In this document: positions 979 through 55,147 of the stretch, in pieces | Layout of the letters: every line of letters begins with the position of its first letter | How positions within the stretch are numbered: position 1 is the first letter of the stretch | From: an uncultured delta proteobacterium | Lineage (GTDB): Bacteria > Myxococcota > Myxococcia > Myxococcales > Myxococcaceae | Direction of reading: 5' to 3' | NCBI GenBank assembly: GCA_963771175.1 | Contig: CAVYSY010000028.1 | Coordinates: 64,001 to 128,000, forward strand | DNA: 64,000 nt | Made by a program: the position numbers and the translations under genes | The notes under the pieces: model-generated | What the model was told of the DNA's origin: nothing | Seen by the model: only the letters and a program-made list of their open reading frames with translations | Databases searched by the model: none

Positions 979-1101
979 AAACCTGTCCGACAGTCGGACA
1001 GGTTTGCGCGAAACGCGCCCGGGAGGTGGAGGCCCGTCGGGCGCGGTTCTCCGCAACCTGTACACTTAGTGGACAAGTTCGCGCGAAACGCGCCCGGGAG
1101 G
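979..1101. repeat. REP-like palindrome pair
   Basis: Perfect IR AAACCTGTCCGAC-A-GTCGGACAGGTTT (979-1005) and imperfect AACCTGTACACT-T-AGTGGACAAGTT (1055-1079), each followed by GCGCGAAACGCGCCCGGGAGG; recurs at 41.1-41.2 kb and 61.3 kb. Confidence 0.85.
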
Positions 1102-1261
1102 GCGTCCCGTCACCGGGTCTCCTGGGTTAGAGCTGCTGGCCTTCGTGCCGCACGGGCCGGTGCTGCTGCTCAGGCTGCTGCTCCACGAGCGCCCGGAGCG
1201 TCATCAGCCGGCGGACCTTTTGCTCCTTGTTCCCGCCGCGCGCGTCCGCGAAAGAAGCCCG

Positions 1262-1302
1262 CAAAAGCGAAGGGCGGGGCCCCCGTGAGGAGCACCCGCC
1301 CT
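1262..1302 (-). terminator. Probable intrinsic terminator of tandem gene copy 1
   Basis: Stem AGGGCGGG/CCCGCCCT followed on the minus strand by TCGCTTTTG, just past the stop at 1326. Confidence 0.6.
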
Positions 1303-1325
1303 GCTTCAACCACCCGCCGGACTGC

Positions 1326-1895
1326 TTAGCGGATGTTGCCGATGATGGACTTCTGCGTCTCACCGCGCATCTTGATGACGTTGCTGATCATCTGGACCAT
1401 CTCGGAGTAGTTCTGCAGCTCGTACTGGGCCTTGAGGCGGGCGGCGTCCTTCGGGTCCAGGCCCTCGAGCGACTTCTGCTGGGTGGCCGACAGGCCCTTG
1501 CCCGTCTGCGCCATGGAGATGGCGTTGTCCCAGATGCCGCCGCCGCTGGCCGCGGTGGTCACCGCGTTGTTGATGGCGCCCGCCTCGACAGGCGAACGGG
1601 TCGGGATGCTCGGGGCCGGAGCCGCACCACCGGTCGCACCGCCCACGGGAGCGGGGGTGGTGGGCAGGTTGGTGCTCACGCCACCCTGGGTCGCGGAGGG
1701 CGAGGGCAGGCCGAGCGCCTTGGCAACCTGCTCCAGCAGGCTCTTCTTGGCACCCTCGAAGCCGGACTTGAAGAACTCGCCGATGACGTTCTTCAGCGCG
1801 TCCTTGACGCCGTTGAGAACCGTGCCGCCGATGCCGCCGCTGCCGAGGATCTTGCCGAGGTCAATCTTGGGAAGCTGGAAGCCGCCGATCTTCAT
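1326..1895 (-). CDS. Hypothetical protein with a T3SS needle/filament-like C-terminal helix (copy 1)
   Basis: 189 aa ending DPKDAARLKAQYELQNYSEMVQMISNVIKMRGETQKSIIGNIR; GGAGAG RBS; strong GC3 bias; duplicated. Confidence 0.75.
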   Translation of the reverse strand: MKIGGFQLPKIDLGKILGSGGIGGTVLNGVKDALKNVIGEFFKSGFEGAKKSLLEQVAKALGLPSPSATQGGVSTNLPTTPAPVGGATGGAAPAPSIPTRSPVEAGAINNAVTTAASGGGIWDNAISMAQTGKGLSATQQKSLEGLDPKDAARLKAQYELQNYSEMVQMISNVIKMRGETQKSIIGNIR

Positions 1896-1946
1896 TTGGG
1901 TCTCTCCGGGTGGAGGGCAGCGCCAGCGCCGCCCTGCTTACAAACA

Positions 1947-1976
1947 GATTATCGCAAAGGCCGTCCGGGAGTTTCC
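1947..1976 (-). promoter_or_regulatory. sigma28/FliA-like promoter (copy 1)
   Basis: Minus strand GAAA-N15-TGCGATAA versus consensus TAAA-N15-GCCGATAA. Confidence 0.5.
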
Positions 1977-2051
1977 TGCTGATTTATTTCTCCCGATTTT
2001 TCTCCGAATCCCCCGGCTGAAGCGGTGCGGCAGGCGGGGAGGCCGAACCCG

Positions 2052-2092
2052 CAAAAGCGAAGGGCGGGGCCCCAGTGAGGAGCACCCGCCCT
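2052..2092 (-). terminator. Probable intrinsic terminator of tandem gene copy 2
   Basis: Same hairpin and short U-tract as 1262-1302. Confidence 0.6.
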
Positions 2093-2114
2093 GCTTCACC
2101 ACCCGCCGGACTGC

Positions 2115-2684
2115 TTAGCGGATGTTGCCGATGATGGACTTCTGCGTCTCACCGCGCATCTTGATGACGTTGCTGATCATCTGGACCATCTCGGAGTAGT
2201 TCTGCAGCTCGTACTGGGCCTTGAGGCGGGCGGCGTCCTTCGGGTCCAGGCCCTCGAGCGACTTCTGCTGGGTGGCCGACAGGCCCTTGCCCGTCTGCGC
2301 CATGGAGATGGCGTTGTCCCAGATGCCGCCGCCGCTGGCCGCGGTGGTCACCGCGTTGTTGATGGCGCCCGTCTCGACACCCGCGCGAGTCGGGATGCTC
2401 GGCGCGGGGGCCGCACCACCGGTCGCACCGCCCACCTGGGCGGGGGTGGAGGGCAGGTTGGTGCTCACGCCACCCTGGGTCGCGGAGGGCGAGGGCAGGC
2501 CGAGCGCCTTGGCAACCTGCTCCAGCAGGCTCTTCTTGGCACCCTCGAAGCCGGACTTGAAGAACTCGCCGACGACGTTCTTCAGCGCGTCCTTGACGCC
2601 GTTGAGAACCGTGCCGCCGATGCCGCCGCTGCCGAGGATCTTGCCGAGGTCAATCTTGGGAAGCTGGAAGCCGCCGATCTTCAT
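2115..2684 (-). CDS. Hypothetical protein with a T3SS needle/filament-like C-terminal helix (copy 2)
   Basis: 189 aa, near-identical to 1326-1895; true start ATG at 2684 inside the long shadow ORF. Confidence 0.75.
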   Translation of the reverse strand: MKIGGFQLPKIDLGKILGSGGIGGTVLNGVKDALKNVVGEFFKSGFEGAKKSLLEQVAKALGLPSPSATQGGVSTNLPSTPAQVGGATGGAAPAPSIPTRAGVETGAINNAVTTAASGGGIWDNAISMAQTGKGLSATQQKSLEGLDPKDAARLKAQYELQNYSEMVQMISNVIKMRGETQKSIIGNIR

Positions 2685-2725
2685 TTGGTCTCTCCGGGTG
2701 GAGGGCAGCGCCAGCGCCGCCCTGC

Positions 2726-2995
2726 TTACAAACGGATTATCGCAAAGGCCGTCCGGGAGTTTCCTGCCCGAATTCTTTTTCTTTTTCCGGCCCCTTCTAC
2801 CCGCCCGCGCTGGCGGAGGAGCGCGGGGAGGCGCAGGAAGACGGCCTCCTCGAGCCGCACCCGGGGCCAGGCCGCTCGGGCGGAGGCGAGCAGCTCCGCG
2901 AGCACCGGCTCCAGCGAGGGCAGCTCCGCGTAGCCCCGCGGCTCCGGCCGCGAATGGAGGGCGAGCAGGCGGGCGAGCAGAAGCTGTGAGGCCAT
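2726..2995 (-). pseudogene. Truncated N-terminal fragment resembling the Myxococcales ECF sigma-70 family
   Basis: LEPVLAELLASARAAWPRVRLEEAVFL resembles the N-terminus of that family; sigma regions 2 and 4 are absent. Confidence 0.4.
2735..2764 (-). promoter_or_regulatory. sigma28/FliA-like promoter (copy 2)
   Basis: Identical GAAA-N15-TGCGATAA element. Confidence 0.5.
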
Positions 2996-3203
2996 GGGAG
3001 CGGACCCTGGCGCGATTACAGCGTGGAACGGGACTTTCCTCCGTTCTTACAGGCTCCGGGAAGGCGGGGTGAGCCGGGAGCCCGTGGGCCCCCGAGCAGA
3101 GGGAGCCCGCGCTTCCCCCTCGGGGTCCCCGGCACAACCCATGCTTGCACCTCCCCGACGCCGCGGGGGCGAGGGCGGCTCTCGGGCGCGTGTCGGGGGT
3201 GGC

Positions 3204-3824
3204 ATGGGGGTGAGGGAGCTGAAGGAAAAGGCGCTGGACCTCTACGCGCGGAGGAAGTTCGCGGACTGCGCGCGCACCTACGCCAAGCTGCTCGAGCTGG
3301 AGCCCAGGGACCCGCACCTGTACGTGCGCCACGCCGAGGCCTGGCGGCGCGCGGGAGATCGGCGCAAGGCGATCTCCTCCTACCGGACGGCGGCGGAGCT
3401 GCTGCTGCAGCTCGGGTGCGAGGCGCGGGCCCGGGCGGCGTTGAAGGTGGCGCTGGAGTTGGATCCCCGGGACTCGGAGGTGGCGCACGCACTGGCCCGA
3501 CTGACGCCCACGTACCCCCAGGGCAGGCCGGCCTCGCGCATTCCCGAGGACAAGCGGGACATGGTGGAGCTGCACACGCGGGCGGCGAACGTCCCGGGGC
3601 AGCGCGCCCTGCCCCCGGCACCGGCCTCGCCCGCGGCGCCCCTGCCCTCTCCGGCGGAGGTGCGGCGGCTCTCGGCGAATACCCTCGCCCTGAGGGCCGC
3701 ACCGGGGACGCGCTGGGTGGTGGTGTCCTCGCGCACACCCCTGACGGCCTACGAGGTGGATGAGCTGGAGCGGGTGATGACGCGGGAGTTCACCCTGGAA
3801 GTGACGCTCACTCCCGAGTCTTGA
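3204..3824 (+). CDS. Tetratricopeptide repeat protein
   Basis: Helical repeats YAKLLELEPRD, AISSYRTAA, ALELDPRD. Confidence 0.75.
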   Translation: MGVRELKEKALDLYARRKFADCARTYAKLLELEPRDPHLYVRHAEAWRRAGDRRKAISSYRTAAELLLQLGCEARARAALKVALELDPRDSEVAHALARLTPTYPQGRPASRIPEDKRDMVELHTRAANVPGQRALPPAPASPAAPLPSPAEVRRLSANTLALRAAPGTRWVVVSSRTPLTAYEVDELERVMTREFTLEVTLTPES

Positions 3825-3885
3825 GGCAGGGCACGGGGAGGAGGCACCTCCCCACGAGGAGCCCCCCCCACCCCGGCCGCGCCCC

Positions 3886-4188
3886 TCAGAGGGCCGCGGA
3901 TTCCCGCTGTTCCCGCTCGGTCTCGCTGGAGGAGTCCCCCAGGGAGGCCAGGAAGGCGTCCACGCGGGAGGCGTTCTTCTCGGTGGGCTCAGGCGCCCGC
4001 ACCATGGCCTCGCAGTGCTCGCTCTTGCGCTTGGGATGGCAGTGGCGGACACCGTAGACATGGTGGCAGCCGCACGCATCCACGCGCTTCTTGCCGCAGA
4101 CGGCCGGGTTGAACACCGGCGCCGTCTTCACATCCACCGGCCCCGCGTGCAGGGTCGCCGCCACCACCAATGCTCCGAGAATCCCCAT
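3886..4188 (-). CDS. Small exported Cys/His-rich protein (YHYH-like)
   Basis: Signal-like N-terminus; DACGCHHVYGVRHCH motif. Confidence 0.6.
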   Translation of the reverse strand: MGILGALVVAATLHAGPVDVKTAPVFNPAVCGKKRVDACGCHHVYGVRHCHPKRKSEHCEAMVRAPEPTEKNASRVDAFLASLGDSSSETEREQRESAAL

Positions 4189-4386
4189 CTCCCAACCCCC
4201 CTTGAGTCTCCGGGGAAAGGAATGGGAATTCTTCAGTGAAGGGGCAACTGCGGGCGCTCGGGAGCGAACATCTCACGGGCACCGGCCGTTGACCGGTCGC
4301 AGGGCTGGCCGCTCGTTTTGTCCGTCAGCTCCCACAAGACGCTTCCGTCGCTACCGTCGGTTGAAGGACTCCGCGGGGAAATCGCC

Positions 4387-5739
4387 ATGAGCTGGACGCA
4401 AAGGTTGGAGAAGGTCGCGGAGGGGCATTTCGTCCTGCCGAAGACGAAGACGATGCGGGTGGATGCCCACCTGTTCCTCTCGGACAAGCTGCTGTGGGGC
4501 GAGGGCCCCGAGCTGCCCGGTCTCGAGGAGGCGGTGTTCGACCAGGTGGTGAACGCGGCGTCCTTCCCGGGGGTGACCCGGGTGGCGGTGACGCCGGACT
4601 GTCACGTGGGCTACGGCGTGCCCATCGGCACGGTGGTGGAGACGGAGGGAATCCTGCTCCCCACGGCGGCCGGCTACGACATCGGCTGCGGCATGGTGCA
4701 GCTCAAGACGACGCTCACCGCCGAGGACGTGGCCGACAAGGCGAAGCGCCGGCAGTGGATTGACGAGGTGACGAAGCGCATCGCCGTGGGCGTGGGGGCG
4801 TCGCGGGTGCAGAAGCAGCGGAGCATCAACGCGCGCACGTTCGCCGAGGTGGTGCGCCATGGGGCCAAGGCCCTGGGCCGCAACGCGTCCACCACCGAGC
4901 GCGACTTCATCCCGGTGGAGGACGACCGGGTGGACATCCCCGAGCGGGCCTACGACAAGAGGGACCAGTTGGGCAGCCTCGGGGGCGGCAACCACTTCAC
5001 CGAGATGCAGGTGGACGAGGAGGGCCGCGTGTGGGTGATGTTGCACACGGGCAGCCGGGGCTTCGGGTGGAACATCGCGAAGCACTACTTCGTCGAGGGC
5101 GCGGCGGCGCTGGGGCTGAGCAAGCGCAGCGAGGACTTCATCTGGCTGGACGCGGACAGCCGGCTGGGGCGCGAGTACTGGAACCTGCACAACATGGCGG
5201 CCAACTTCGCGGTGGCCAACCGGCTCCTCATCGGCGAGGCGGTGTGCGCGGCGCTCGAGGAGGTGTTCGGCGGGACGGCGGACATCTATTACGAGATTTC
5301 CCACAACCTCATCCAGAAGGAGGCGGGGAAGTTCGTGGCGCGCAAGGGGGCGACGCGGGCCTTCCCGGGCGGGCACCCGGCGCTGCGCCGGACGCAGTGG
5401 GAGAAGTCGGGGCACCCCATCCTGATTCCGGGCTCGATGGAGACGGGCAGTGCCATCCTCTTCGCGCAGGAGGGAGCGGAGGCCTCCATCTACTCGGTGA
5501 ACCACGGCGCGGGGCGGCGGCTGTCGCGCGGCGAGGCCCGGCGGGTGCTCAACCAGTCCGAGACGGACCAGCGCATGTCCGAGGCGGGCATCCTGCTCAA
5601 CACGCGCACGACGCCGCTGGACGAGTCGGGGCCCTGCTACAAGAACCTCGACGACGTGCTGGAGACGGTGGAGATGGCGGGTCTGGCCAAGGTGGCCCGG
5701 CGCCTCAAGCCCGTGGCCTGCATCAAGGGCGCGGACTGA
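4387..5739 (+). CDS. rtcB: RtcB family RNA ligase
   Basis: TPDCHVGYGVPIG, GYDIGCG, LGSLGGGNHF, HTGSRG, SHN, RKGAT, IPGSM, NHGAGR. Confidence 0.95.
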   Translation: MSWTQRLEKVAEGHFVLPKTKTMRVDAHLFLSDKLLWGEGPELPGLEEAVFDQVVNAASFPGVTRVAVTPDCHVGYGVPIGTVVETEGILLPTAAGYDIGCGMVQLKTTLTAEDVADKAKRRQWIDEVTKRIAVGVGASRVQKQRSINARTFAEVVRHGAKALGRNASTTERDFIPVEDDRVDIPERAYDKRDQLGSLGGGNHFTEMQVDEEGRVWVMLHTGSRGFGWNIAKHYFVEGAAALGLSKRSEDFIWLDADSRLGREYWNLHNMAANFAVANRLLIGEAVCAALEEVFGGTADIYYEISHNLIQKEAGKFVARKGATRAFPGGHPALRRTQWEKSGHPILIPGSMETGSAILFAQEGAEASIYSVNHGAGRRLSRGEARRVLNQSETDQRMSEAGILLNTRTTPLDESGPCYKNLDDVLETVEMAGLAKVARRLKPVACIKGAD

Positions 5740-16135: not shown

Positions 16136-16705
16136 CTACACCTCCTCGAAATACGTCCCGGTGGCGCCGATGCGCTCCAGTGCGTGCTTGATCTCCTGGG
16201 AGACGATGAGAGCGACCGTCCATCCCCAGGTGCGGAATACCTTGGCGTCTCCTACTTTCGAGGGATCGATCCGCATCCCGTAGACATCCCGGTACTGCCC
16301 GACCTTCTCGGGTCGTCCATCCTCCGGGGTCCAGATCTCCACCTCCTTGCATGCCGCATCATCGATGCACCGGAGGGTCTTGGTCGCGACGAGGATGCAG
16401 AACTGCTCCGGCTGACCTTCGACCTCCACGGGGAAGAGCTGCACGTCCTCGGGAGCAAGCTCCGCGAACACGGTGGCCACCCGGACGTGGACCAGGGGAA
16501 TGGCGAGACCCGCGAGAGAGAAATCAAGCGGCTTGCCAGGACGGTCAATGGCGATCTTCAGGCGTCCCGGGTTGGGAAGACGCCTTCCGTCCGTGAACAT
16601 CCACGGGTCGTCCACTTCCCGGCCACTCGGATCCGCAGGGTTGTGGAGATACCAGCGACCCGGCACATAAACGTCATCGGAAAGGTCAAAGTACCGCTTT
16701 GGCAT
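16136..16705 (-). CDS. Imm11/DUF1629-type immunity protein
   Basis: PLDFS, DVQLFPVEVEG, CID, IDPSKVGDAKVFR, ALIVS; directly downstream of the AHH toxin. Confidence 0.85.
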   Translation of the reverse strand: MPKRYFDLSDDVYVPGRWYLHNPADPSGREVDDPWMFTDGRRLPNPGRLKIAIDRPGKPLDFSLAGLAIPLVHVRVATVFAELAPEDVQLFPVEVEGQPEQFCILVATKTLRCIDDAACKEVEIWTPEDGRPEKVGQYRDVYGMRIDPSKVGDAKVFRTWGWTVALIVSQEIKHALERIGATGTYFEEV

Positions 16706-16720
16706 GTGAGGACCCTGACG

Positions 16721-18073
16721 TCACTGGCTCCGAGTCACCAACCTGTTCAGTTCGGTGCCTTCCGTCGAGACTTGACGCGCCAACCTTCGGAGCTCCGCCG
16801 TCAATGCCTCTCGGCAATGCTGGACACTGCGGCACGTTCTCGTTGCTTCCATCAGTCGCCTGAAGATCCTCGCATGGTACTCCCGCGGATGTGGCCCCCT
16901 GTGGCCCTGGACACGAACGATGTTGGCCGGGTCGTTCAGTGACATACCTGCCTTGTCGAAGATCTTCTGGAACTGAGGCGACCAGGGGCCGCCATTGTCC
17001 GTGGAATCCCACCACTTGTCCGTGGCGATGTGGTGGTCGTGTCCCCGCGCATCCACCGGGCCGGCAGCACCAGCACCCATCCCCCGCGCCGCCATGGCAA
17101 CCGCGCCAGGAGCAAGCGACAGGGTGATGGCCTCGCCCGTCACGGCAACCGCCTCCACCTGGCCCACGGCCGAGAGCTGGATGCCTGCCTGTGCCCCGGC
17201 CTGCATGGACGCCTGCGCCGAGCCGGGCAACGTCGGCACCGTCGACGCGAAACCCGCCGCCGTGTTCCCGATGGCCGCTGTGGCGAGCAAGGCGAAGGCG
17301 CGCGCCGCGTTCCGTCCCATCACCTTGCCGTACCGCTCTCCTGCGCCGCGGAGCTCGTCGAACGTGGTGGCCTGGTCCGCCTCCTCCACCAGCCGTTTGA
17401 AGCCCGTTATCAGCCCCCAGAAAGTATCCACGCCCAGGTAGACAATGAGGGTCGCGGTCATCACCGCCGCGAGGCCCTTCGAGACCGGCTCCGGTAGCGA
17501 CATGAGGATGAAATACGTGGTGCCCGTCCACAACGCCGCCGCCAGCATGGCGTGCGGGTCGGCCATGTCCTTGAAGGCCTCGAGCATTTCCTCGAGCACC
17601 GCGCCCTGGGCCAGCGCCATGGCCAGCGCGTAACGGCCATCCCCGTTCACCGTGGGGCACTCCACCAGCAAGCGCAGGCAGTCGCCCTTCCTCCCAGTGC
17701 GCTCGCACCAGCGCAGGTAGGCGTGGGTCAACTCCACGTCCGCTTGCAGCTGCTCCGACCCCCGCGGAGTACCCTCCACAGGGGTCACCCCATGGGTCAG
17801 GGGGTTGAACAGATACGATCCGCTGCGCGCTTCCACCTCCAGCAGCCGCCGGGCGGCCTGCTGCGGGTTGGCGGAGGGCCGTACGCTCCGGGACAACTCG
17901 GAGACCGCCTCCTGGAACTCGTCTTCCTCCAGCTCGACCGGCTCGAATGCGCCGATGCGTGGAGTGAGAACAATGGGCGCCCCCTGGCCCGTGTCCAGGC
18001 GCACCACGCGAGCCGTGGTGCAGCCGGTCGTGAGCCACAGCAGCACCAGCGGCATCGCCCAACACGATTTCAT
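16721..18073 (-). CDS. SitA5-like lipoprotein polymorphic toxin with AHH nuclease C-terminus
   Basis: Lipobox LTTGC; VVRLDTGQG; PEP..K segment; HHIATDK...HRGPHPREYH. Confidence 0.87.
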   Translation of the reverse strand: MKSCWAMPLVLLWLTTGCTTARVVRLDTGQGAPIVLTPRIGAFEPVELEEDEFQEAVSELSRSVRPSANPQQAARRLLEVEARSGSYLFNPLTHGVTPVEGTPRGSEQLQADVELTHAYLRWCERTGRKGDCLRLLVECPTVNGDGRYALAMALAQGAVLEEMLEAFKDMADPHAMLAAALWTGTTYFILMSLPEPVSKGLAAVMTATLIVYLGVDTFWGLITGFKRLVEEADQATTFDELRGAGERYGKVMGRNAARAFALLATAAIGNTAAGFASTVPTLPGSAQASMQAGAQAGIQLSAVGQVEAVAVTGEAITLSLAPGAVAMAARGMGAGAAGPVDARGHDHHIATDKWWDSTDNGGPWSPQFQKIFDKAGMSLNDPANIVRVQGHRGPHPREYHARIFRRLMEATRTCRSVQHCREALTAELRRLARQVSTEGTELNRLVTRSQ

Positions 18074-20648: not shown

Positions 20649-21703
20649 TCAGTCGAGGAAGCGTCTCCACCAGCGCCGGGCCTCATCCTCGGTGAAGCGA
20701 AGCGAGGTGTACCGGGGCGGCTCAACGGCCCCCAGGCTCCACGGCAGGAACAGCGGCTCGAGCCAGGGCTCCAGCACCTGGGCGAGCTCGCGGTACGCGG
20801 GAAGGGTCTTCCCGGTGGCCAGGTCTCCGGCTTCCGGCCGCTCTCCCAGGGACACGACGACGCGATTCCCGGCGAGCTCCACCAGCGTCGTCTCGGAGGT
20901 GTGCAGGCGGGAACGAAGGGCCGCGGCGCCGCCGAGCCGGGTGAGAACGGAGGGGCCGAGGAAGTTGAGCCAGTGGACTCCATCCACCCGAAGGCCCATG
21001 GATTGCGCGGGGCCCCAGACAGTTCGGAGGTCGATGCCAGGGTAGCGCAGGGCCTCGGCGCGCAAGGCGTCGTTCGAGCGCCGGAAGAGCCCGGGATAGG
21101 GGTGAAGGGCCAGGCCGGCATGCCCGGAGGCGAAGAGAAGCCCGGAGGTCATGTCGAGGACCAGCTCCCGCACGCGTGCGGGCCCGTGCTCCTCGACATA
21201 CTCCATGGGAAGTGTCGCCGTGAGCAGGCTCACGAACCCGTCTTCGGGGGCAGGCCGCCACGGAATGCGAGCCCGGTACTCGAGCTCATAGCCATTTCGA
21301 CTGGCGAGGCCTCCGGTGAAGAGCAGGCCCCTCTCGAAGCCTCGCTTCTCGATCTGCACCTGCTCTCTGTCGTTGAAGTCATCCGGGAAGGACCAGGGCT
21401 TCGTGTCCTCCAAGAGCCGGCGAACCCAAATCCATCCTCCTCGGTCAGGCGCGAGCCTTCGCTGTAATCGATGTGAACGAAATTGATCGTCCTGGGCCCT
21501 TCGCCAACGGCACGCATGTAGCTGTCGATGGCATGACTCACTCCGACGGAGAGCTCGGGGTGGTCGTGCGGCAGGTAGAAGGCAAGGCGGAACACCTCGC
21601 GCGCAAGCAACTCTCGCCGCGGGTACGGCACGTCGCCGTCAGGAGGCTTCCAACCCCAGGGATTGGGGCCACGCAGGCGAAGACGTGGGTAGCAACCCGT
21701 CAC
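20649..21703 (-). CDS. DUF3396 (TsiV-like) immunity protein; one frameshift
   Basis: LPMEY, SGHAG, RYPGID, GVHWLNFLG, PEAGD, LPAYRELA, ARRWWRRFLD. Confidence 0.85.
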
Positions 21704-22967: not shown

Positions 22968-24173
22968 ATGAGAACGATCAGAACGAAGACCGCGATCAAG
23001 GTGCTGGCACAGTCGGACATTTCGCTTTTCAAGGCCCATCAGAGACTCTCCAACCAGAGGGCGCTCACTCTCAATAGTGAGGTCTTCATCGAGCGGTTCT
23101 ACCCGGGGCTCCGGGGCTCCTATGAGCCCGTGCTCTTTCCCTTGACGATCATCGGACCCGGGGCAAGGGGAGCTCACCAACTGACGCGCATGGCCATGCG
23201 CTCACCGGGAGCAAGGGACTGGCACATCAAGGGCGAGCCCATCCATGACCCGGCCGAAGAGCCGGGTCGCTACGACCAGATCGCGAAAAACGACTTCGCC
23301 CTCATGGCCTTCGGAGGCACCGAGCAACCGCAAGCCGTGACGATCATCCTCGTCTCGGCCGCCGAGGACGCCGAACTGCACGCCGCCATCGCAGCCCGCT
23401 TCGAGTTGCCCACACAGCACACCATGATAGAGGTCTCGGAGATAGCCATTGAGCATCTACGGGCCACCACCCTCGATGCCTATCCCGACAACGAGCACCC
23501 GCTCGACCTGCTCATCTCGGGCGATACGGTTGAAGATGTGCTTTTCGCCACCGGAACTCCCCGCCCTACCAACGCGCGGCCCCTCCGTCATCCGGTAGCG
23601 GTATCCCCCGAGAACCTTCTCCAACAACTTCTCGCTGCCCTGGAGACCACTCGAAGAGGCGAAGAGCTCTTCGGGGTCTGGCTCACCGCCACTGGCCACG
23701 AAGAAGACGACTTCAAGTGGGTTTCACAGACCCATGCGCGCTCAGCGTACGACTACGAGGTGTACGCAGCCAGGTGGCTCAACCCCGCAGTGCATGCCTA
23801 TGTCGAGGTGAAGACGACGTGCGGGCCCTTCAAGCGGCCAATACACATGAGTCTCACCGAACTGCGATTCGCGGCGGAGACGGAGAACTATCGTATCGCG
23901 CGCCTGTACAAGCTCGATGATGAGACGCCGAAACTCCGAATCCTCACCGGCGTCCAGGCCGTTGCCGTGCGGCTCATTGAGAAGCTCGGCGCTCTTCCAG
24001 ATGGAGTTGCAGCCGACAGCCTGCAAATCGATCCGGGTGTGTTCGAGGTCGAGCTGGAGACGAACCTCCCATCGCCAAAATCCCTTGGATCAGACGAGAC
24101 TCTCCTCGTCCCTGGGAGCCGCTCCGTCGAGTTCGCGTCGGATCTCGGGAGGAAGGGGCCGGTCCAATTCTAG
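22968..24173 (+). CDS. Putative endonuclease: B3/EcoRII-N-like N-terminus + DUF3883 (PD-(D/E)xK) C-terminus
   Basis: AIKVLAQSD at the N-terminus; GEE..WVS..AYDY..YVEVKTT..HMSLTE; lower GC. Confidence 0.7.
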   Translation: MRTIRTKTAIKVLAQSDISLFKAHQRLSNQRALTLNSEVFIERFYPGLRGSYEPVLFPLTIIGPGARGAHQLTRMAMRSPGARDWHIKGEPIHDPAEEPGRYDQIAKNDFALMAFGGTEQPQAVTIILVSAAEDAELHAAIAARFELPTQHTMIEVSEIAIEHLRATTLDAYPDNEHPLDLLISGDTVEDVLFATGTPRPTNARPLRHPVAVSPENLLQQLLAALETTRRGEELFGVWLTATGHEEDDFKWVSQTHARSAYDYEVYAARWLNPAVHAYVEVKTTCGPFKRPIHMSLTELRFAAETENYRIARLYKLDDETPKLRILTGVQAVAVRLIEKLGALPDGVAADSLQIDPGVFEVELETNLPSPKSLGSDETLLVPGSRSVEFASDLGRKGPVQF

Positions 24174-26861
24174 AGCGACGGTCATGGGAGCATCCCCATC
24201 GGCGCCAACGACCTTGACCTCACCCAGGTAGAGAGCGGGCTCGTGCGAGCGTCCCTGGACGAACAGGTGCAGCGTCGAGCCGCGCTCTTCATGTTCGAGC
24301 ACCCTCCGACCGACCTCGTTCGTCCGCGTCATCTTGTTCTGGCTGGTCCACGAGAAGCGCTGCTCCGAGATGAACCGATTGCGATAGCGATGCGTCTCCT
24401 TCGCCGTGCTCGTATCGAGCTTGGTAATGATGACGCCATGCTGCTCGAACCAGAGAATGCCCGCGTTGTGGCGCGCGGGGTCGTACTGCCTCCCAAAGTA
24501 ACGGACGATTTCCGGCCGGGTGTATTGCGCGTAGCGCGACAGATCCGCCGGCGTGCGGAGTACGCCGCCATGGCGCTCCTGGTGGTCCTTGTTCACGGTG
24601 TACAGCAGGCGGCCCTCCACCTGTGGCAGCAATTCCGGGCCGAGCGCCGCGATGATGGACCTCGCCAGCTGAGTCCCGGTGAGCACCTCCGACGGTACTT
24701 TCTTGCGAAGCGTCTCCCAGGTCCGAGACGTGTCGTCGAGCGGCGCGTGCTCGGCTTGCCATTGTGGGTACTTGCGGAAGAACTCCTCGTAACCGGACTG
24801 TGGGTCGTCAGGACGCGCGGCCAGTCCCCAGAGAATCGCGTAAGGGCCAACGCGTTGGGCCTGCCAGTCGGTCTCGGCTGCCGCGAGGAGGAGCTGGGCG
24901 GGATGCTCCTCCGGGAGCCCCTTCGCCCATGCGGGGAGATCCCCGTGGGCCTGCTGGCACTCCAGCCATGAGCCGTAAGCCGCGCGGAAGTCACTGAGCT
25001 CCGGCAACTCCTCCCGGTGCCAAAGGTCGACGGGAAGCGGTGGCCGACCCAGCTCGCCACGGAGCGTGAGGTAGGCTTCAGCACAGCGCTCCCGTCGGGT
25101 CGTATGCCGGCGAATCTTGGCGAGGAGCTCTCGTGTGCGTTTCTGGAGGACGACCTCGCAAGCCCGCGGCGGCTTCAGGGTGAATCCCTCGACGACGTCG
25201 AGGCGCGCCCCCGTCCCCTTCGGGTCATGCAGCGCCTTCAACGTGACCCACGCACTCCGGTGATGGCCCACGAAGTCGAGGACCGTCAGGACCTCCGTTC
25301 CCGGAAAGAGGCGCAGCCCTCGCCCGAGCTGCTGGAGGAACAGCGAGGCCGAGTCCGTCGGCCTCAGGAAGAGGAGCGAGTTGATGGCCGGGATGTCGAC
25401 ACCCTCGTTCAGGACGTCGGCGACGAACAGCCACTCGAGTGGATCCCTTACGTCCGCCAGCCGGGCGTAGATGCGTTCGCGCTCCTGGATCGACAGATTC
25501 CCCGAGACGGCCACGGCGTCTTGATGCCGTCGCTTGAAGGCCTCGGCCATGAACTCCGCATGACGGATGCTGGCACAGAAGCCAACGGTCGCACGCTTCG
25601 GCCCATCGAAGCCGCGCATCAGTGCCTGTTCGAGCACCAACTCGGCGCGCGCATCGATTGAAAGCTCCCGCTCCAGGACGTCGATGGGAATCTTCCCGTT
25701 ACGCCAGGGAATCCGCGCGAAGTCGACCGTCTCGTCCGCGATGCCGAAGTAATGGAACGGAAGGAGCCAGCCACGATCGACCGCCTCGGGCAGACGCATC
25801 TCGTAGGCGATGTTCCAGTTGCACCACTCGAGCACGTCATGCCCATCCTGGCGCTCGGGGGTTGCCGTCATCCCGAGGAGGAATGCGTCCTCGACGAGCG
25901 CGCGGAGCGGCTGGTAGCCCGGAGCTTCCGCGTGGTGGAACTCATCGATGATGACGTAGTCCCAGCGACGGCTGAGCAGCGAGTCGTTACCGCGAAGGCT
26001 CTGGATGGTCGCGAAGATGATCTCCGCGTCCACGTCCTCCTGACCCCCACCGACGAGCCCGAGGCGACGGTCGCGGAGCACGCGGCCAAAAGCCCTGCGG
26101 GCCTGCGTCAGGTGTTCGAGACGATGCGAGACATACAGGACACGTCGCGCCCGACTCGCGGCGACATCGAATGCAGCCAGGAACGTCTTCCCCAGGCCGG
26201 TGGCGGCGATCACCGCGGCACGACGCTCCCCGCGTGCACGGAGCTCGGCCAGCTTCCGCAAGGCCTCGCGCTGCGCCGAATTGGGCTCGGGTGCCGGCTC
26301 CAACTGATCGGCGGCCACCAGGAAGGGCCTGGGCGCGCTCTCGGGTCGTCGGCGCAGGCGGTAGCCGTGAATCAGCTCGCGTGAGAGGGGCCGCACATCC
26401 GAGCGACTCCAGAGCGCCTCGAATTGCCGCTGGGTCTGCTCGATGCGAGCCCGCTCCAGGGAACGGATGTTCCACTCCAGGTTGGTGGCGAGCCCACCCT
26501 TGGTGAGGTTGGAGGAGCCCGCCCAGCATTCCGCGCCAGTGCTCCCGCGAAACCACCAGAACTTCGCGTGGAAGCCGGTCGGGCCTTCCTGGACCCGGCA
26601 TTCAACGCCTTTCATTCCCAGGAGCGCCTCCAGCGCCTCGGGCTGCGTCACGTCCTGGTAGGTGGACGTGAGAATCCTCACGCGGCCTCTCCTGGCGACC
26701 AGCTCTTGGAGGGGATCGACGAGGAGTTGCAACCCGCTGCACCGGGTGAAGGAGACGGCGAGCAGTGCCTCTTCCGCCCCCGCGAGGCCCCCGCGCACGG
26801 CATCGAGCATGCGGGGCTCGCCGGGGAGGTTCAGGATGGAGTGCTCTGGGTCCGCAAGCAT
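24090..26861 (-). CDS. PLD nuclease-SF2 helicase-DUF3427 protein (SauUSI-like)
   Basis: FHAK and GSSNLT...NLEWN; ATGLGKT, DEFHH, TATPER, NEGVDIP, QQLGRGLR; YRNRF...FSWTSQN. Confidence 0.88.
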   Translation of the reverse strand: MLADPEHSILNLPGEPRMLDAVRGGLAGAEEALLAVSFTRCSGLQLLVDPLQELVARRGRVRILTSTYQDVTQPEALEALLGMKGVECRVQEGPTGFHAKFWWFRGSTGAECWAGSSNLTKGGLATNLEWNIRSLERARIEQTQRQFEALWSRSDVRPLSRELIHGYRLRRRPESAPRPFLVAADQLEPAPEPNSAQREALRKLAELRARGERRAAVIAATGLGKTFLAAFDVAASRARRVLYVSHRLEHLTQARRAFGRVLRDRRLGLVGGGQEDVDAEIIFATIQSLRGNDSLLSRRWDYVIIDEFHHAEAPGYQPLRALVEDAFLLGMTATPERQDGHDVLEWCNWNIAYEMRLPEAVDRGWLLPFHYFGIADETVDFARIPWRNGKIPIDVLERELSIDARAELVLEQALMRGFDGPKRATVGFCASIRHAEFMAEAFKRRHQDAVAVSGNLSIQERERIYARLADVRDPLEWLFVADVLNEGVDIPAINSLLFLRPTDSASLFLQQLGRGLRLFPGTEVLTVLDFVGHHRSAWVTLKALHDPKGTGARLDVVEGFTLKPPRACEVVLQKRTRELLAKIRRHTTRRERCAEAYLTLRGELGRPPLPVDLWHREELPELSDFRAAYGSWLECQQAHGDLPAWAKGLPEEHPAQLLLAAAETDWQAQRVGPYAILWGLAARPDDPQSGYEEFFRKYPQWQAEHAPLDDTSRTWETLRKKVPSEVLTGTQLARSIIAALGPELLPQVEGRLLYTVNKDHQERHGGVLRTPADLSRYAQYTRPEIVRYFGRQYDPARHNAGILWFEQHGVIITKLDTSTAKETHRYRNRFISEQRFSWTSQNKMTRTNEVGRRVLEHEERGSTLHLFVQGRSHEPALYLGEVKVVGADGDAPMTVALELDRPLPPEIRRELDGAAPRDEESLV

Positions 26862-44250: not shown

Positions 44251-46165
44251 TCAATCCCGGTGGCCCAACGCCTTGTCCAGGTTGAAGGCCGCGCTGATGA
44301 GGGACAGGTGCGTGAGGGCCTGCGGGAAGTTGCCCAGCGCCTCGCCCGAGGGCCCCGTCTGCTCGGCGAACAGCCCCACGTGGTTGGCGTAGCCCAGCAT
44401 CCGCTCGAAGGTGAGGCGCGCCTCGTCCAGCAGGTCCGGCCGCGTCACGCTCGCCCGCGTCATCGCCTCCACCAGCCAGAAGGTGCACAGGTTGAAGGTG
44501 CCCTCGCGCCCCGAGACTCCGTCCTCCGTCGCCTCCACGTCGTAGCGGAACACCAGCCCGTCCGACGTGAGCCCGCCCTGCGCTGGCGGCTTGCGCAGCA
44601 CGTCCAGCATCGAGAGCATCCGCGGGTCCACCGGGGACAGGAAGAACACCAGCGGCATCAGCAGGTTCGCCGCGTCCAGCGACATCGTCTCGTAGGACTG
44701 GATGAAGGCGCCCCGCTTCGAGCACCAGCCCCGCTGCATGATCTCCTCGAAGATGGCGTCGCGCGTCTGCAGCCAGCCGGACCCGGTCCGCCGGGAAGCT
44801 GCGCTTGTCCGCCAGCCGGATGGCCCGGTCCACCGCCACCCAGCACATCATCTTCGAGTACACGAAGTGCTGCTGCCCGGCCCGCACCTCCCAGAGGCTC
44901 TCGTCCTTGTCGCGCCAGTGCTCGCACACCCAGTCCACCAGTCGCCGCAGGTGCCGCCAGAAGTCGTACGCAGATGGGCGCGCCGTGCTTGTTGTACAGG
45001 TACACCGAGTCCATCAGCTCGCCGTAGATGTCGAGCTGGAGCTGGTGCGCCGCGCCGTTGCCCACGCGCACCGGCTTCGAGCCCAGGCTCCCCTCCAGGT
45101 GCCAGAGCTCCTCCTCCTTCGGCACCTCGCCGCCGTTCAGCGAGAACATGAGGGGGAGCGGCTCGCCCAGGCGGCAGCTCCGCGATGCGCTTCTCCAGCC
45201 AGCGCATGAACGCGCCCGCCTCCTGCTTGAAGCCGATGCGCATCAGCGCGTACACCGTGAAGGCCGCGTCGCGAATCCACACGTAGCGGTAGTCCCAGTT
45301 GCGCCGGCCGCCGGGGAACTCGGGCAGGCTGCAGGTGGGCGCCGCGACGATGGCCCCCGAGGGCTCGAACGTCATCAGCTTCAGCACCAGCGCCGAGCGA
45401 TGCACCGTCTCGCGCCACCGCCCCGTGTAGCTGCAGCCCGCGAGCCAGTGCCGCCAGTAGTCCACCGTGGAGCGGAACAGCGCCTCGGAGGCCTCGTGCC
45501 CCATCACCGTTTCGTGGCACGAGCTCCGGGGCGCCCTCGCGCAGGCTGAACACCGCCGACTGGCCCTCGCTCAACGTGAAGCGCGAGGTGACGCGCTGCC
45601 CGTCCGTCTCCAGCCTCGCCGAGGTGCTCAGCGTCAGGTTCAGCGTCGCCGAGAGGAAGCTCGCCCCGCCGTGGAGCAACCGCACCGTGTGCGGGTCCCT
45701 CGCGTAGTTGAAGGCGGGCAGGCACTCCAGGCGGAAGGCCATCTCCCCGCGCACCGCCCGGATGCGTCGCACCACCTCGCGCACCCGGTGCCCCTTGCCC
45801 AGGGGCATGAAGTCCACCAGCTCGCCCACGCCCTCCGGGGAGTAGAAGCGCGTCACCAGCACGTTGGAGTCCGGCCAGTAGAACTGCTTGTGCACCACCC
45901 GCTGGCCGTCCAGCTCCGGGGAGATGCGGAAGTGGCCTCCCTTCTCCGGGTCCAACAGGGCCGCGAAGACGCTCGGGCTGTCGAAGTGCGGGAAGCACCA
46001 CCAGTCCAGCGTCCCGTCCGTGGCCACCAGCGCCACCGTGCGCAGGTCACCGATGACGCCATGGTCCTCGATGGCCGGCGGCCGCGACGTCTTGTCCCCG
46101 TTCATGTGCTCCCTCCCGCTGACGAGCCCTGGCGATTTCCCATCCGCCGGTTCAGGGCTTGTCAT
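44251..46165 (-). CDS. Glycoside hydrolase family 15 (trehalase/glucoamylase-like); frameshifted
   Basis: [54 protein letters not shown]. Confidence 0.92.
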
Positions 46166-54002: not shown

Positions 54003-55147
54003 AGTAGGTGACCAAAAGTCCCCGACATAATAACGCGGAGGGCCTACGCTGAGCCGATGCGCAAGGCACTGGCCCCCGCCCAACGGGGGCTGACCAGGTA
54101 TGACCGCGCTCGACTCCGGCGAGCGCTTCGGCACGCCGAGGATGTACGCGTGTTCCAGCGTGCGCAAGCGCTGCTGCTGGTAGCTGAGGGCCACACGTTG
54201 ACCCAGGCGGCGCACGTCACGGGGTTGAGCCGACCGACGGTGTACTTCTGGCTCAAGCGCTACGTGCAACAGCGGCGCATCGAAGCACTGCGCGACGGAC
54301 CTCGCCGCGGACGGCCGCCGGCCGCCGACTGCATCAGTCCGGAGCAGATACTCCTCGAACTCAGCAGCCCACCCTCGGACTGGGGCTATAGCACCCACAT
54401 CTGGACGGTGGCGCTGCTGGCCGGGCACCTGGAGCGGCGCTACGGCTGTCCCATCAATCCTCGCACCCTGCGCCGCCGCATGAAGGCCATGGGCCTGCGC
54501 TGGAAGCGTCCGCGCTACGTCTTCTCGGAGAAGGCGCCCCACCTGCCCCAAAAAAAGGAGCGCTTGTCCGTAGGCTGAGACGGCTGCCCGAAGGCGCGGT
54601 GTTCCTCTTTGAGGACGAGACCTTCCTGCGTCAGTTTCCGCCGCTACGCGCGGCGTGGGCTCCCCGAAGGCAGCAGGCCCGAGTGCCCATCACCGGGCAG
54701 AACGCGAAGCGTGTACTCTTCGGTGCTCTCAATCCGCTCACCGGCCACCGTGTCGTTCTCCAGCGCCCCTCTCTGCGTCAGGAGGACTTCCAGGCCTTCC
54801 TCCGGCTGTTGCGAGCGCACTACCCTGGGCGCCCCCTCTTCCTGCTGCTGGACAAGGCCGGCTGTCACACCGCCGTGCGCTCCCTGCAGCTCGCCGCGCA
54901 CCTGGACATCCACCTGCTGTGGTTGCCCAAGCAGTGGTCGGAGCTCAACGCCATGGACCACCTGTGGCGCGGCCTCAAGCAGCACGTCGCCGCCAACCGC
55001 CAATACCCCACCGTTGACGCACAGGCCCAGGACGCCGAAGACTGGGTGCTGGGCCTGTCGCCTCGGCAGGCTCTGCGCAAGGCAGGAGTCCTCTCCCGCC
55101 GTTTCTGGCTCCGTTCCTTTTTGTAAAGGAACTTTTGGCTACCTACT
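54003..55147 (+). mobile_element. IS630 family insertion sequence
   Basis: Imperfect TIRs (TA)AGTAGGTGACCAAAAGTCCC / GGAACTTTTGGCTACCTACT(TA); duplicated TA in a CTAG target. Confidence 0.93.
54057..55126 (+). CDS. IS630 transposase (HTH orfA + DDE orfB joined by -1 frameshift)
   Basis: GRPP, WT, EDET, LLLD.A..H, ELNAMD.LW..LK; A-AAA-AAG at 54551-54557. Confidence 0.9.

Follow-up and report, generated by a model that had tools for sequence, protein, structure and literature searches.

The two tandem genes studied here appear, as judged from their sequences, to code for uncommonly long proteins related to the type III needle subunit SctF, and they come from a group of bacteria in which the type III machine was described as needle-less. 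The reading we favor, and consider probable by a modest measure as a whole chain, is that they are tandem paralogues of an elongated SctF-like family of the Archangium lineage, and that their products are substrates of the myxobacterial non-flagellar T3SS (type III secretion system) which polymerize via their C-terminal region. Within this chain, we are confident that the family is homologous to SctF and associated with a T3SS, and we are evenly divided on whether it would polymerize as a needle or filament.

Copy A (P0001) was located at 1326..1895 and copy B (P0002) at 2115..2684 of the window (the whole 64-kb stretch of DNA analyzed), both on the minus strand, and each open reading frame translated into a protein of 189 aa. 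These positions and lengths agree with the original prediction, and the C-terminal sequence quoted there was found letter for letter in both proteins. Alignment showed that a tandem duplication covers copy A and copy B, with a unit of ~790 bp and 95% column identity that includes flanking sequence of each CDS, about 85 nt on the upstream side and about 70 nt on the downstream side. The two CDSs differed at 14 of 570 nt, with 13 of these differences within codons 79-105 and none in codons 1-37 or 106-189. Six amino acids were changed between the copies (I38V, T79S, P83Q, S101A, P102G, and A105T), five of them at residues 79-105. The GC3 of both genes was 0.93-0.94 in a window of 70% GC, which is typical of real genes.

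We divided P0001 into a conserved N-terminal domain (residues 1-66), a Gly/Ala/Pro/Thr-rich variable middle (67-125), and an SctF-like C-terminal helical region (about 126-189). Composition by region showed that Gly, Ala, Pro, Thr, and Ser make up 71% of residues 67-125, in keeping with the Gly/Ala/Pro/Thr-rich middle described earlier. No hydrophobic signal-like or membrane segment was found in P0001 or P0002, as the best 19-residue Kyte-Doolittle mean was only 0.83; as far as hydropathy goes, this agrees with the absence of a signal peptide that had been proposed. Between subfamilies, identity was 71% in the N-terminal domain, 16% in the middle, and 21% in the C-terminal region, and the motif L-G-L-P-x-P was invariant in the family alignment.

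We then compared both proteins with curated family models. The results showed that PF09392 was the only Pfam family matched by P0001 or P0002 at E ≤ 10, covering residues 140-188 of P0001 (E 1.3e-5, 25.7 bits) and matching P0002 at E 1.5e-5 (25.6 bits), against a cut-off of 29.4 bits that neither reached. The best NCBIfam match was TIGR02105, the SctF model (E 4.7e-4; 20.5 and 20.6 bits, cut-off 41.7), so that both proteins missed curated SctF membership by score in both models. The E-values of 1e-5 and 5e-4 are significant, yet the scores lie under the cut-offs, indicating homology to SctF and not curated membership. That every curated-model score is sub-threshold, that the middle third is of low complexity, and that a Foldseek search came back empty (see below) would also fit a chance or compositional resemblance between an amphipathic helix and SctF in an unrelated low-complexity protein. 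We regard this as highly improbable, because the PF09392 match falls in the non-repetitive C-terminal region, outside the low-complexity middle, and because independent lines of evidence, given below, converge. In the family, 13 of 24 members matched PF09392 at E ≤ 0.01, and no other family was matched in these.

A single-sequence PDB search with a window protein gave a best E of only 0.2. The family profile A2 matched a 43-residue chain of 7y6c (E 8e-4), an entry named for a needle co-chaperone, and the matched chain is presumably a needle fragment; A2 also aligned to nearly the entire PrgI, but at a non-significant E of 0.5-1.4. When A2 was searched against 1.84 billion representatives, 235 matches were obtained at E ≤ 0.001, and more than half of the best 150 of these were longer than 150 aa. 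PF09392 was matched at E ≤ 0.001 by 39 of the 148 relatives scanned, with 6 at or above the cut-off, and it was the only family to recur, the other nine being matched by one protein each, which argues against a chance resemblance. With profile A4 (150 sequences), a wider set including needle-size relatives recruited by A2, needle proteins were the top 12 of 15 PDB matches at E ≤ 1, and the alignments to them ran flush to the last residue, which again argues against chance. The A4 E-values (6e-8 for 7y6c_F, 1e-4 to 3.5e-4 for PrgI, and 0.004-0.014 for MxiH) are transitive, because A4 contains the needle-size sequences that A2 recruited. In hhalign, A2 matched a set of 21 needle-size relatives at 99.5% (E 2.8e-23) over residues 131-189 of P0001, and this set itself matches PrgI and MxiH. 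A protein-language-model search returned Myxococcota clusters of ~200 aa, with PF09392 present in 10-17% of their members. Profile comparison of the C-terminus with SctF was therefore positive, and the SctF-like C-terminal pattern of the original prediction goes beyond chance: the last ~60 residues are homologous to SctF by PF09392, TIGR02105, the PDB profiles, and hhalign. The suggested likeness to EspA was not borne out, as PF09392 was the sole Pfam match and the EspA family model gave none for P0001 or P0002 at E ≤ 10. Flagellar families were likewise not matched by either protein in Pfam or NCBIfam.

AF2 monomer models reached a mean pLDDT of 43.4 with the 24-sequence alignment and 58.8 with 150 sequences, and we used only the helices of these low-confidence models. 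Helices were predicted at 121-143 and 148-188, the latter a long C-terminal helix with a pLDDT of about 77 and shorter helices before it, and the middle region was predicted to be disordered. When the better model was searched against PDB with Foldseek, nothing matched at E ≤ 0.001 (the best E was 7.4); this null result is uninformative because the confidence of the model is low.

To place the genes among their relatives, we carried out a contig search, which recovered 7 related loci in 3 Archangium MAGs. Three of these loci, one from each MAG (L004, L005, and L007), had the family gene within a non-flagellar T3SS cluster, and in the other 4 a T3SS neighbor was absent. A cluster member is thus present in all 3 Archangium MAGs with the family, which supports tying the family to a T3SS and argues further against a chance resemblance. 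The gene order in L005 and L007 was sctN, yscO-like, sctQ, fliO-like, sctR, sctS, sctT, sctU, LcrH-like, family gene, LcrH-like, and sctV. In L004, a short contig on which the T3SS genes shown are sctV, an sctD-like gene, and one LcrH-like gene, the order was family gene, LcrH-like gene, a 153-aa ORF, sctV, and the sctD-like gene. SctV, SctN, and SctQ of the clusters scored above the NCBIfam cut-offs, and the sctD-like gene is of FHA type. Of the flanking chaperones, one passed the LcrH/SycD model TIGR02552 (112.5 vs 104.8 bits) and the others matched it at E 1e-21 to 1e-30; they also matched SctY, more weakly. No needle chaperone of the SctE/SctG type was found among the genes flanking the cluster copies, and no secretin was found in the fetched stretch of the Archangium T3SS clusters.

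Word-indexed searches, which can miss distant relatives, named no member from M. xanthus, the species whose predation T3SS the original prediction had invoked. The named relatives in two of these searches were from Archangium only (4 of 24 and 5 of 37 matches), and a third search gave one named relative among 3, a 'Myxococcaceae bacterium' MAG. Look-ups of 9 relatives from the list of 235 matches yielded one organism name, 'Myxococcales bacterium'. The RtcB encoded in the window places it among Archangium-like soil predators and not with M. xanthus.

The genes had been called orphans, encoded away from the apparatus in a window otherwise free of T3SS genes. None of the 61 further ORFs in the 64-kb window gave a match to any Pfam family of the T3SS at E ≤ 0.001, so the description holds at this locus; it fails for the family, 3 of whose 7 related loci lie in T3SS clusters. 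The neighbors in the window encode thioesterases, a TPR protein, RtcB, Fic, and PilZ. Together with the 4 of 7 related loci that also lack T3SS neighbors, this setting would suit window copies unconnected with type III secretion, in which an SctF-derived fold does another job (e.g., as a cytoplasmic or periplasmic scaffold) and the cluster relatives alone serve the T3SS. We consider this improbable, because the window proteins have their architecture as a whole in common with the cluster copies, because the last 46 residues of the L004 copy, which alone survive at the contig edge, are 100% identical to theirs, and because codons 1-37 and 106-189 have stayed the same in both tandem genes. A shared upstream element, described below, also argues against it. 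The TPR protein is a divergently encoded neighbor of 206 aa with about 2 TPR motifs (3204..3824, plus strand; the start as annotated matches the stored protein). It occupies the same position in L003, a related MAG locus, where it is 93% identical, and this synteny stands. A role as T3SS chaperone was rejected and is not supported, the protein scoring 19 bits to LcrH/SycD (cut-off 104.8) and matching the cluster TPRs at E of about 1e-3.

Upstream of each copy, we identified a conserved element on the minus strand, at 1896..1990 for copy A and 2685..2780 for copy B. The copy A element comprises GGAAAC-N16-CGATAATC (1947-1976), a 20-nt palindrome (1915-1934), and then GGAGAG before the ATG; in copy B, the corresponding pattern spans 2735-2764 and the palindrome 2703-2722. 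This element of ~100 nt showed 74% mean column identity over 8 family loci, the T3SS-cluster copies L005 and L007 included, and it is the shared feature that speaks against window copies unconnected with type III secretion. The GGAAAC-N16-CGATAATC pattern occurred 2 times in the window (copies A and B only) vs 0 expected, and no sigma-70 consensus promoter was found within 1100-3300. By comparison with the ECF consensus, GGAAAC-N16-CGATAA may be an ECF-like promoter. The palindrome was rejected as an RNA structure, with compensatory changes in 0 of 8 pairs and shuffles doing equally well, and Rfam gave no match within 1000-4400. A terminator-like GC-rich hairpin with a T-run was found on the minus strand downstream of copy A (1258..1300, site 1271-1258), inside the duplicated unit, and the same hairpin downstream of copy B on the minus strand (2047..2090, site 2073-2061), so that the two copies look like separate transcription units. 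The common upstream element suggests that the dispersed and cluster copies may be expressed together.

Accepting an association with the T3SS, the proteins could still be substrates that form no needle or filament, such as an adaptor, a tip, an inner-rod (SctI-like) protein, a translocator-type cargo of LcrH-like chaperones, or a regulator that is secreted and docks on the export gate by its SctF-like helix. The cluster copies adjoin genes for chaperones of the LcrH/SycD class (class II, translocator), a class that precedes translocator genes in textbook operons, and the invariant L-G-L-P-x-P resembles the class II chaperone-binding motif, P/V-x-L-x-x-P. The most conserved part of the family is the N-terminal domain and not the SctF-like region, and two distant relatives combine a needle-like C-terminus with weak translocator matches (HrpK1, E 1.7e-4; SseC, E 1.1e-4). 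An inner rod protein is also on record for this lineage, since SctI is listed for the M. xanthus T3SS* in the review passages available and an inner rod protein is listed in the 'short' Myxo locus in the accessible part of Abby and Rocha 2012. Against these points, no SctI, tip, or translocator family was matched by P0001 or P0002 in Pfam or NCBIfam, even at E ≤ 10, and a hydrophobic segment of the translocator kind is absent. Among the 15 PDB matches of A4 at E ≤ 1, needle proteins take the top 12 places and no entry bears the name of an inner rod protein. We therefore judge a non-polymerizing substrate to be unlikely, although it is an alternative to be taken seriously.

Under the favored reading, in which the proteins are polymerizing T3SS substrates, the conserved promoter/5'UTR element would start transcription of each copy and, being the same element as that of the T3SS-cluster copy, would bring about co-expression. 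The N-terminal ~66 residues may serve as an export signal and, through L-G-L-P-x-P, as a docking segment for the cluster-encoded LcrH/SycD-like TPR chaperones, and export would proceed through the SctRSTUV/SctN apparatus. The C-terminal region would assemble, SctF-like, to give a helical rod, needle, or filament, with the Gly/Ala/Pro/Thr-rich middle, which differs between paralogues, facing outside as in flagellin or EspA. As the system would have no secretin of its own, the polymer could lie in the periplasm or cross by way of a partner machine. We further propose, tentatively and with less than even confidence, that the Cystobacterineae's 'needle-less' T3SS*, at least in Archangium, exports and polymerizes an elongated SctF-derived subunit, and that co-regulated dispersed paralogues with variable middles provide interchangeable filament surfaces. 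If this is true, the dispersed paralogues would parallel, in a T3SS, the swappable tips that have been reported for the Kil pilus, and SctF would have been remodeled, not lost, in the earliest-branching non-flagellar T3SS lineage.

The myxobacterial T3SS* has been called 'needle-less', with no needle homologue, in the text available from Abby and Rocha 2012 and from papers of 2023-2025, in line with the statement of the original prediction that the M. xanthus T3SS was described without a needle gene. As far as the accessible text of Abby and Rocha 2012 goes, an evolutionary scenario was built on this absence, with SctF lost in the 'Myxo' group, and in the available part of a 2025 study Kil-pilus tips were proposed as a stand-in for the missing needle. 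Our results add a concrete candidate to this debate: within the Archangium T3SS cluster, an SctF-like gene occupies a fixed slot, and alongside it there are dispersed paralogues that have a common upstream element and are possibly co-regulated. The family profile can be used for re-searching M. xanthus and other predators. The findings also indicate that needle-type domains can bear large N-terminal extensions and that curated models fitted to needles of ~70 aa under-call extended proteins of this kind.

Compared with SctF (PrgI, MxiH, YscF; PF09392, TIGR02105), the C-terminal ~60 residues of the window proteins align with the needle hairpin to the last residue, with a motif of the II-x-N-x-R type at the end, and family members are likewise encoded inside T3SS clusters (3 of 7 related loci). 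The window proteins depart from SctF in their length (189 aa, over double the 71-72 positions of the SctF models), in having a further conserved domain at the N-terminus and a middle rich in Gly/Ala/Pro/Thr, in scoring under the curated cut-offs, and in being multi-copy and dispersed in the genome. The cluster copies also differ in being flanked by LcrH/SycD-like genes, with no SctE/SctG-type needle chaperone found beside them, and the T3SS of the host lineage is described, in the portions of the literature available, as lacking a secretin. Set beside class II chaperone substrates, the picture is mixed: the cluster copies adjoin an LcrH/SycD-type gene and L-G-L-P-x-P resembles the binding motif, and the window proteins lack the hydrophobic segment and the translocator family match.

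EspA of E. coli and Bsp22 of Bordetella are injectisome filament/tip-filament proteins of ~190-205 aa, and thus of similar length to the window proteins; the idea of a secreted subunit that polymerizes via its C-terminal helix and extends the needle is also shared. This likeness is one of architecture only, with no EspA sequence match in Pfam at E ≤ 10. Flagellin and hook-type axial proteins have conserved termini, a hypervariable middle, several paralogous subunit genes per genome, and type III export. The family resembles them in its conserved N-terminal domain and variable middle (71% vs 16% identity) and in its several paralogues, whereas it matches no flagellar family, the window protein is much smaller than flagellin, and predictions give it a disordered middle and not a folded domain. 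Finally, the Archangium clusters resemble the myxobacterial T3SS* (M. xanthus mxan_2434-2464; 'Myxo' NF-T3SS), as described in the published text available, in having sctN, sctQ, sctR, sctS, sctT, sctU, and sctV, an FHA-type sctD-like gene, several LcrH-like genes, and no secretin in the fetched stretch. They differ from it as follows: the available text of those papers reports no needle homologue, whereas in Archangium an SctF-like gene sits in the cluster.

The two tandem 189-aa ORFs, P0001 (copy A, 1326-1895) and P0002 (copy B, 2115-2684), lie on the minus strand and form a head-to-tail duplication with a unit of ~790 bp, which extends ~85 nt upstream of each CDS and ~70 nt beyond its end. 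Of the 570 nt per CDS, 14 differ between the copies, 13 of these within codons 79-105, and six amino-acid changes separate the proteins; codons 1-37 and 106-189 are identical. Their GC3 was 0.93-0.94, and the GC content of the whole window was 70%. A T-run follows a GC-rich hairpin 3' of both genes, so that each copy resembles a separate transcription unit. The C-terminal sequence quoted in the original prediction was exact in both proteins, the predicted Gly/Ala/Pro/Thr-rich middle was borne out (71% G/A/P/T/S at residues 67-125), and, in agreement with the claimed absence of a signal peptide, no hydrophobic signal-like segment was found in either protein.

The needle family T3SS_needle_F (PF09392) was the sole Pfam family at E <= 10 for P0001, matching residues 140-188 with E 1.3e-5 and 25.7 bits, below the cut-off of 29.4 bits; the NCBIfam SctF model TIGR02105, whose cut-off is 41.7 bits, gave E 4.7e-4 and 20.5 bits. 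We aligned 24 relatives recovered by search (A2), of which 13 matched PF09392 at E <= 0.01 and nothing else. Against the PDB, the A2 profile matched a 43-residue chain of 7y6c (E 8e-4), whose entry title names a needle co-chaperone; because this chain aligns with needle C-termini, it is probably a needle fragment. The same profile aligned almost full-length with the needle protein PrgI, but at a non-significant E of 0.5-1.4. An exhaustive HMMER search of 1.84 billion representatives with A2 returned 235 proteins at E <= 0.001; among the 148 matches scanned, 39 contained PF09392 at E <= 0.001 (six reaching or exceeding the cut-off), and nine further families occurred in one protein apiece. A 150-sequence profile built from the wider set of A2 matches (A4) had needle proteins as the top 12 of its 15 PDB matches, with E-values of 6e-8 for 7y6c_F, 1e-4 to 3.5e-4 for PrgI and 0.004-0.014 for MxiH, values that are transitive because A2 recruited the set. 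All these needle alignments were flush with the C-terminus, and no entry named as an inner rod protein was among the 15 matches. The profile of 21 needle-size relatives of 70-83 aa (A7) itself matched PrgI and MxiH, and hhalign aligned it with residues 131-189 of the family at a probability of 99.5%, again transitively, since A2 had recruited this set too. These results upheld the claimed SctF-like C-terminus and indicated that the C-terminal region of the family is homologous to SctF. For some members the protein database already lists PF09392 as an automatic label, so the needle domain had been machine-detected; beyond such labels, we found no printed description of it.

The family proteins consist of three parts: an N-terminal domain (residues 1-66), a middle that varies in length and sequence (residues 67-125) and the SctF-like C-terminal region (residues 126-189), with 71%, 16% and 21% identity, respectively, between the two main subfamilies. 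The differences between P0001 and P0002 repeat this pattern of conserved ends and variable middle. Residues 1-66 of P0001 matched no Pfam or NCBIfam family. This domain contains L61-G-L63-P-x-P66, invariant in the A2 alignment, which we take to be similar to a class II chaperone-binding motif. Two low-confidence AF2 models (pLDDT 43 and 59; C-terminal helix ~77) placed helices at 23-60, 103-143 (broken) and 148-188 and a disordered middle, and Foldseek with a low-confidence model gave no match in the PDB. The A. violaceum genome encodes an 83-aa needle-size relative without the N-terminal domain (JRI60_17225, P0041) and, at a separate locus, a full-length 188-aa member (JRI60_16010, P0017), and short and long forms therefore coexist.

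A scan of genome contigs located seven loci, all within three Archangium sp. MAGs, and 74 ORFs around them were scanned. Two loci, L005 and L007, place the family gene within a non-flagellar T3SS cluster with the order sctN, yscO-like, (fliK-like), sctQ, fliO-like, sctR, sctS, sctT, sctU, a 93-aa FlhB-C-like gene, an unassigned 158-aa ORF, the family gene flanked on either side by an LcrH/SycD-like TPR gene, and sctV. Beyond sctV, L007 has an FHA-type sctD-like gene on the other strand, and the L005 contig stops just past sctV. In L007, SctV (822.7 bits, cut-off 692), SctN (637.5, cut-off 605) and SctQ (152.8, cut-off 100.8) passed their NCBIfam cut-offs, as did the upstream TPR gene for the LcrH/SycD model (112.5, cut-off 104.8); the remaining flanking TPR genes gave E 1e-21 to 1e-30, under the cut-off. 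The L004 contig begins within a family gene, whose remaining 46 residues show 100% identity with positions 144-189 of P0001 and P0002, and continues with an LcrH-like gene, a 153-aa ORF, sctV and an sctD-like gene. L001, L002, L003 and L006 had no T3SS neighbour within the fetched flanks. Each MAG thus holds one cluster copy and dispersed copies. Within Archangium T3SS clusters, family members occupy a constant position beside class II-type chaperone genes. The stand-alone 92-93-aa gene directly behind full-length sctU (L005:8572-8850, L007:8575-8850) matches only the post-cleavage C-terminal part of FlhB/SctU.

The family proteins would be exported by the T3SS, with the N-terminal domain binding a chaperone, the C-terminal region driving polymerisation and the variable middle exposed on the surface. 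The main rival reading is a T3SS substrate that forms no filament and would act, for instance, as an adaptor, a tip or rod component or a translocator-like cargo; we retain it because the chaperones flanking the cluster copies are translocator-class and the N-terminal domain is the best-conserved part of the family.

The window and L003 share synteny (RtcB, small Cys-rich protein, TPR protein, family gene); the L003 TPR protein is 93% identical to that of the window, and the L003 family gene is cut by the contig end. The Cys/His-rich protein between the TPR gene and RtcB (3886-4188, minus; L003:8606-8899) has 98-100 aa, a hydrophobic N-terminus, 78% identity between the two loci and no family match. 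The window RtcB clusters at 90% identity with its counterparts from Archangium gephyra, A. lipolyticum and Archangium sp. An organism name was attached to 4 of 24 relatives in one search and to 5 of 37 in another, in every case Archangium, and one further relative came from a MAG labelled Myxococcaceae bacterium; no relative was named as M. xanthus, in searches capable of missing distant members.

The ~100 nt 5' of the start codon (1896-1990 and 2685-2780, minus) showed 74% mean column identity across eight loci and were better conserved than the coding sequence across the family, even at a protein identity of only ~30-40%. This element comprises GGAAAC-N16-CGATAATC, TTTGTAAGC and a 20-nt palindrome. 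The motif occurred in the window only ahead of the P0001 and P0002 genes (chance expectation 0) and was exact in four of the seven loci (L003:9920-9949, L005:9883-9912, L006:504-533, L007:9890-9919), both complete cluster copies included. The element lacks a sigma-70 consensus, its palindrome shows no compensatory changes, and its region had no Rfam match; its spacing is, we presume, reminiscent of ECF-type promoters. The family comprises multiple dispersed paralogues with a common upstream element, which suggests joint regulation of the dispersed copies and those in the clusters; a T3SS regulon might use this element as its dedicated promoter or operator.

Elsewhere in the window there are modules in the style of polymorphic toxins: a 450-aa protein with a terminal AHH nuclease domain adjoins an Imm11 immunity-family gene (16139-18073), and a TsiV-family gene (type VI immunity for VRR-NUC) lies a few kb away (20652-21413). 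A 923-aa protein (24093-26861, minus) joins a PLD-like nuclease domain to a ResIII/DEAD helicase core and DUF3427, an architecture that looks defence-like. A trehalase/GH15-type gene (44254-46165, minus) is apparently split into a TREH_N part (45140-46165) and a piece that covers just the C-terminal portion of Glyco_hydro_15 (44254-44739), which could reflect a frameshift, a pseudogene or an ORF-calling artefact. An HTH (HTH_29/HTH_28) ORF beside a partial DDE_3 endonuclease ORF (54150-55123) looks like IS630-type transposase remnants.

The available passages of Abby and Rocha 2012 (PMC3459982) describe 'Myxo' T3SSs without secretin and without SctF, state that SctF, if present, 'should have been found', and infer its loss. 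Consistent with the needle-less view cited in the original prediction, excerpts of 2023-2025 papers (PMC10433427, PMC10849154, PMC12075869, PMC12428579, PMC11509652) treat the M. xanthus T3SS* (mxan_2434-2464) as needle-less, one of them placing several LcrH homologues and SctI in its cluster. A full-text literature search for Myxococcus with SctF returned only Abby and Rocha 2012, and no report of a myxobacterial needle-like protein was found at title/abstract level. P0001 and P0002 derive from SctF and are predicted to work in a similar mode. Score and size both place them outside the curated SctF family, and we regard them as a new, elongated SctF variant.
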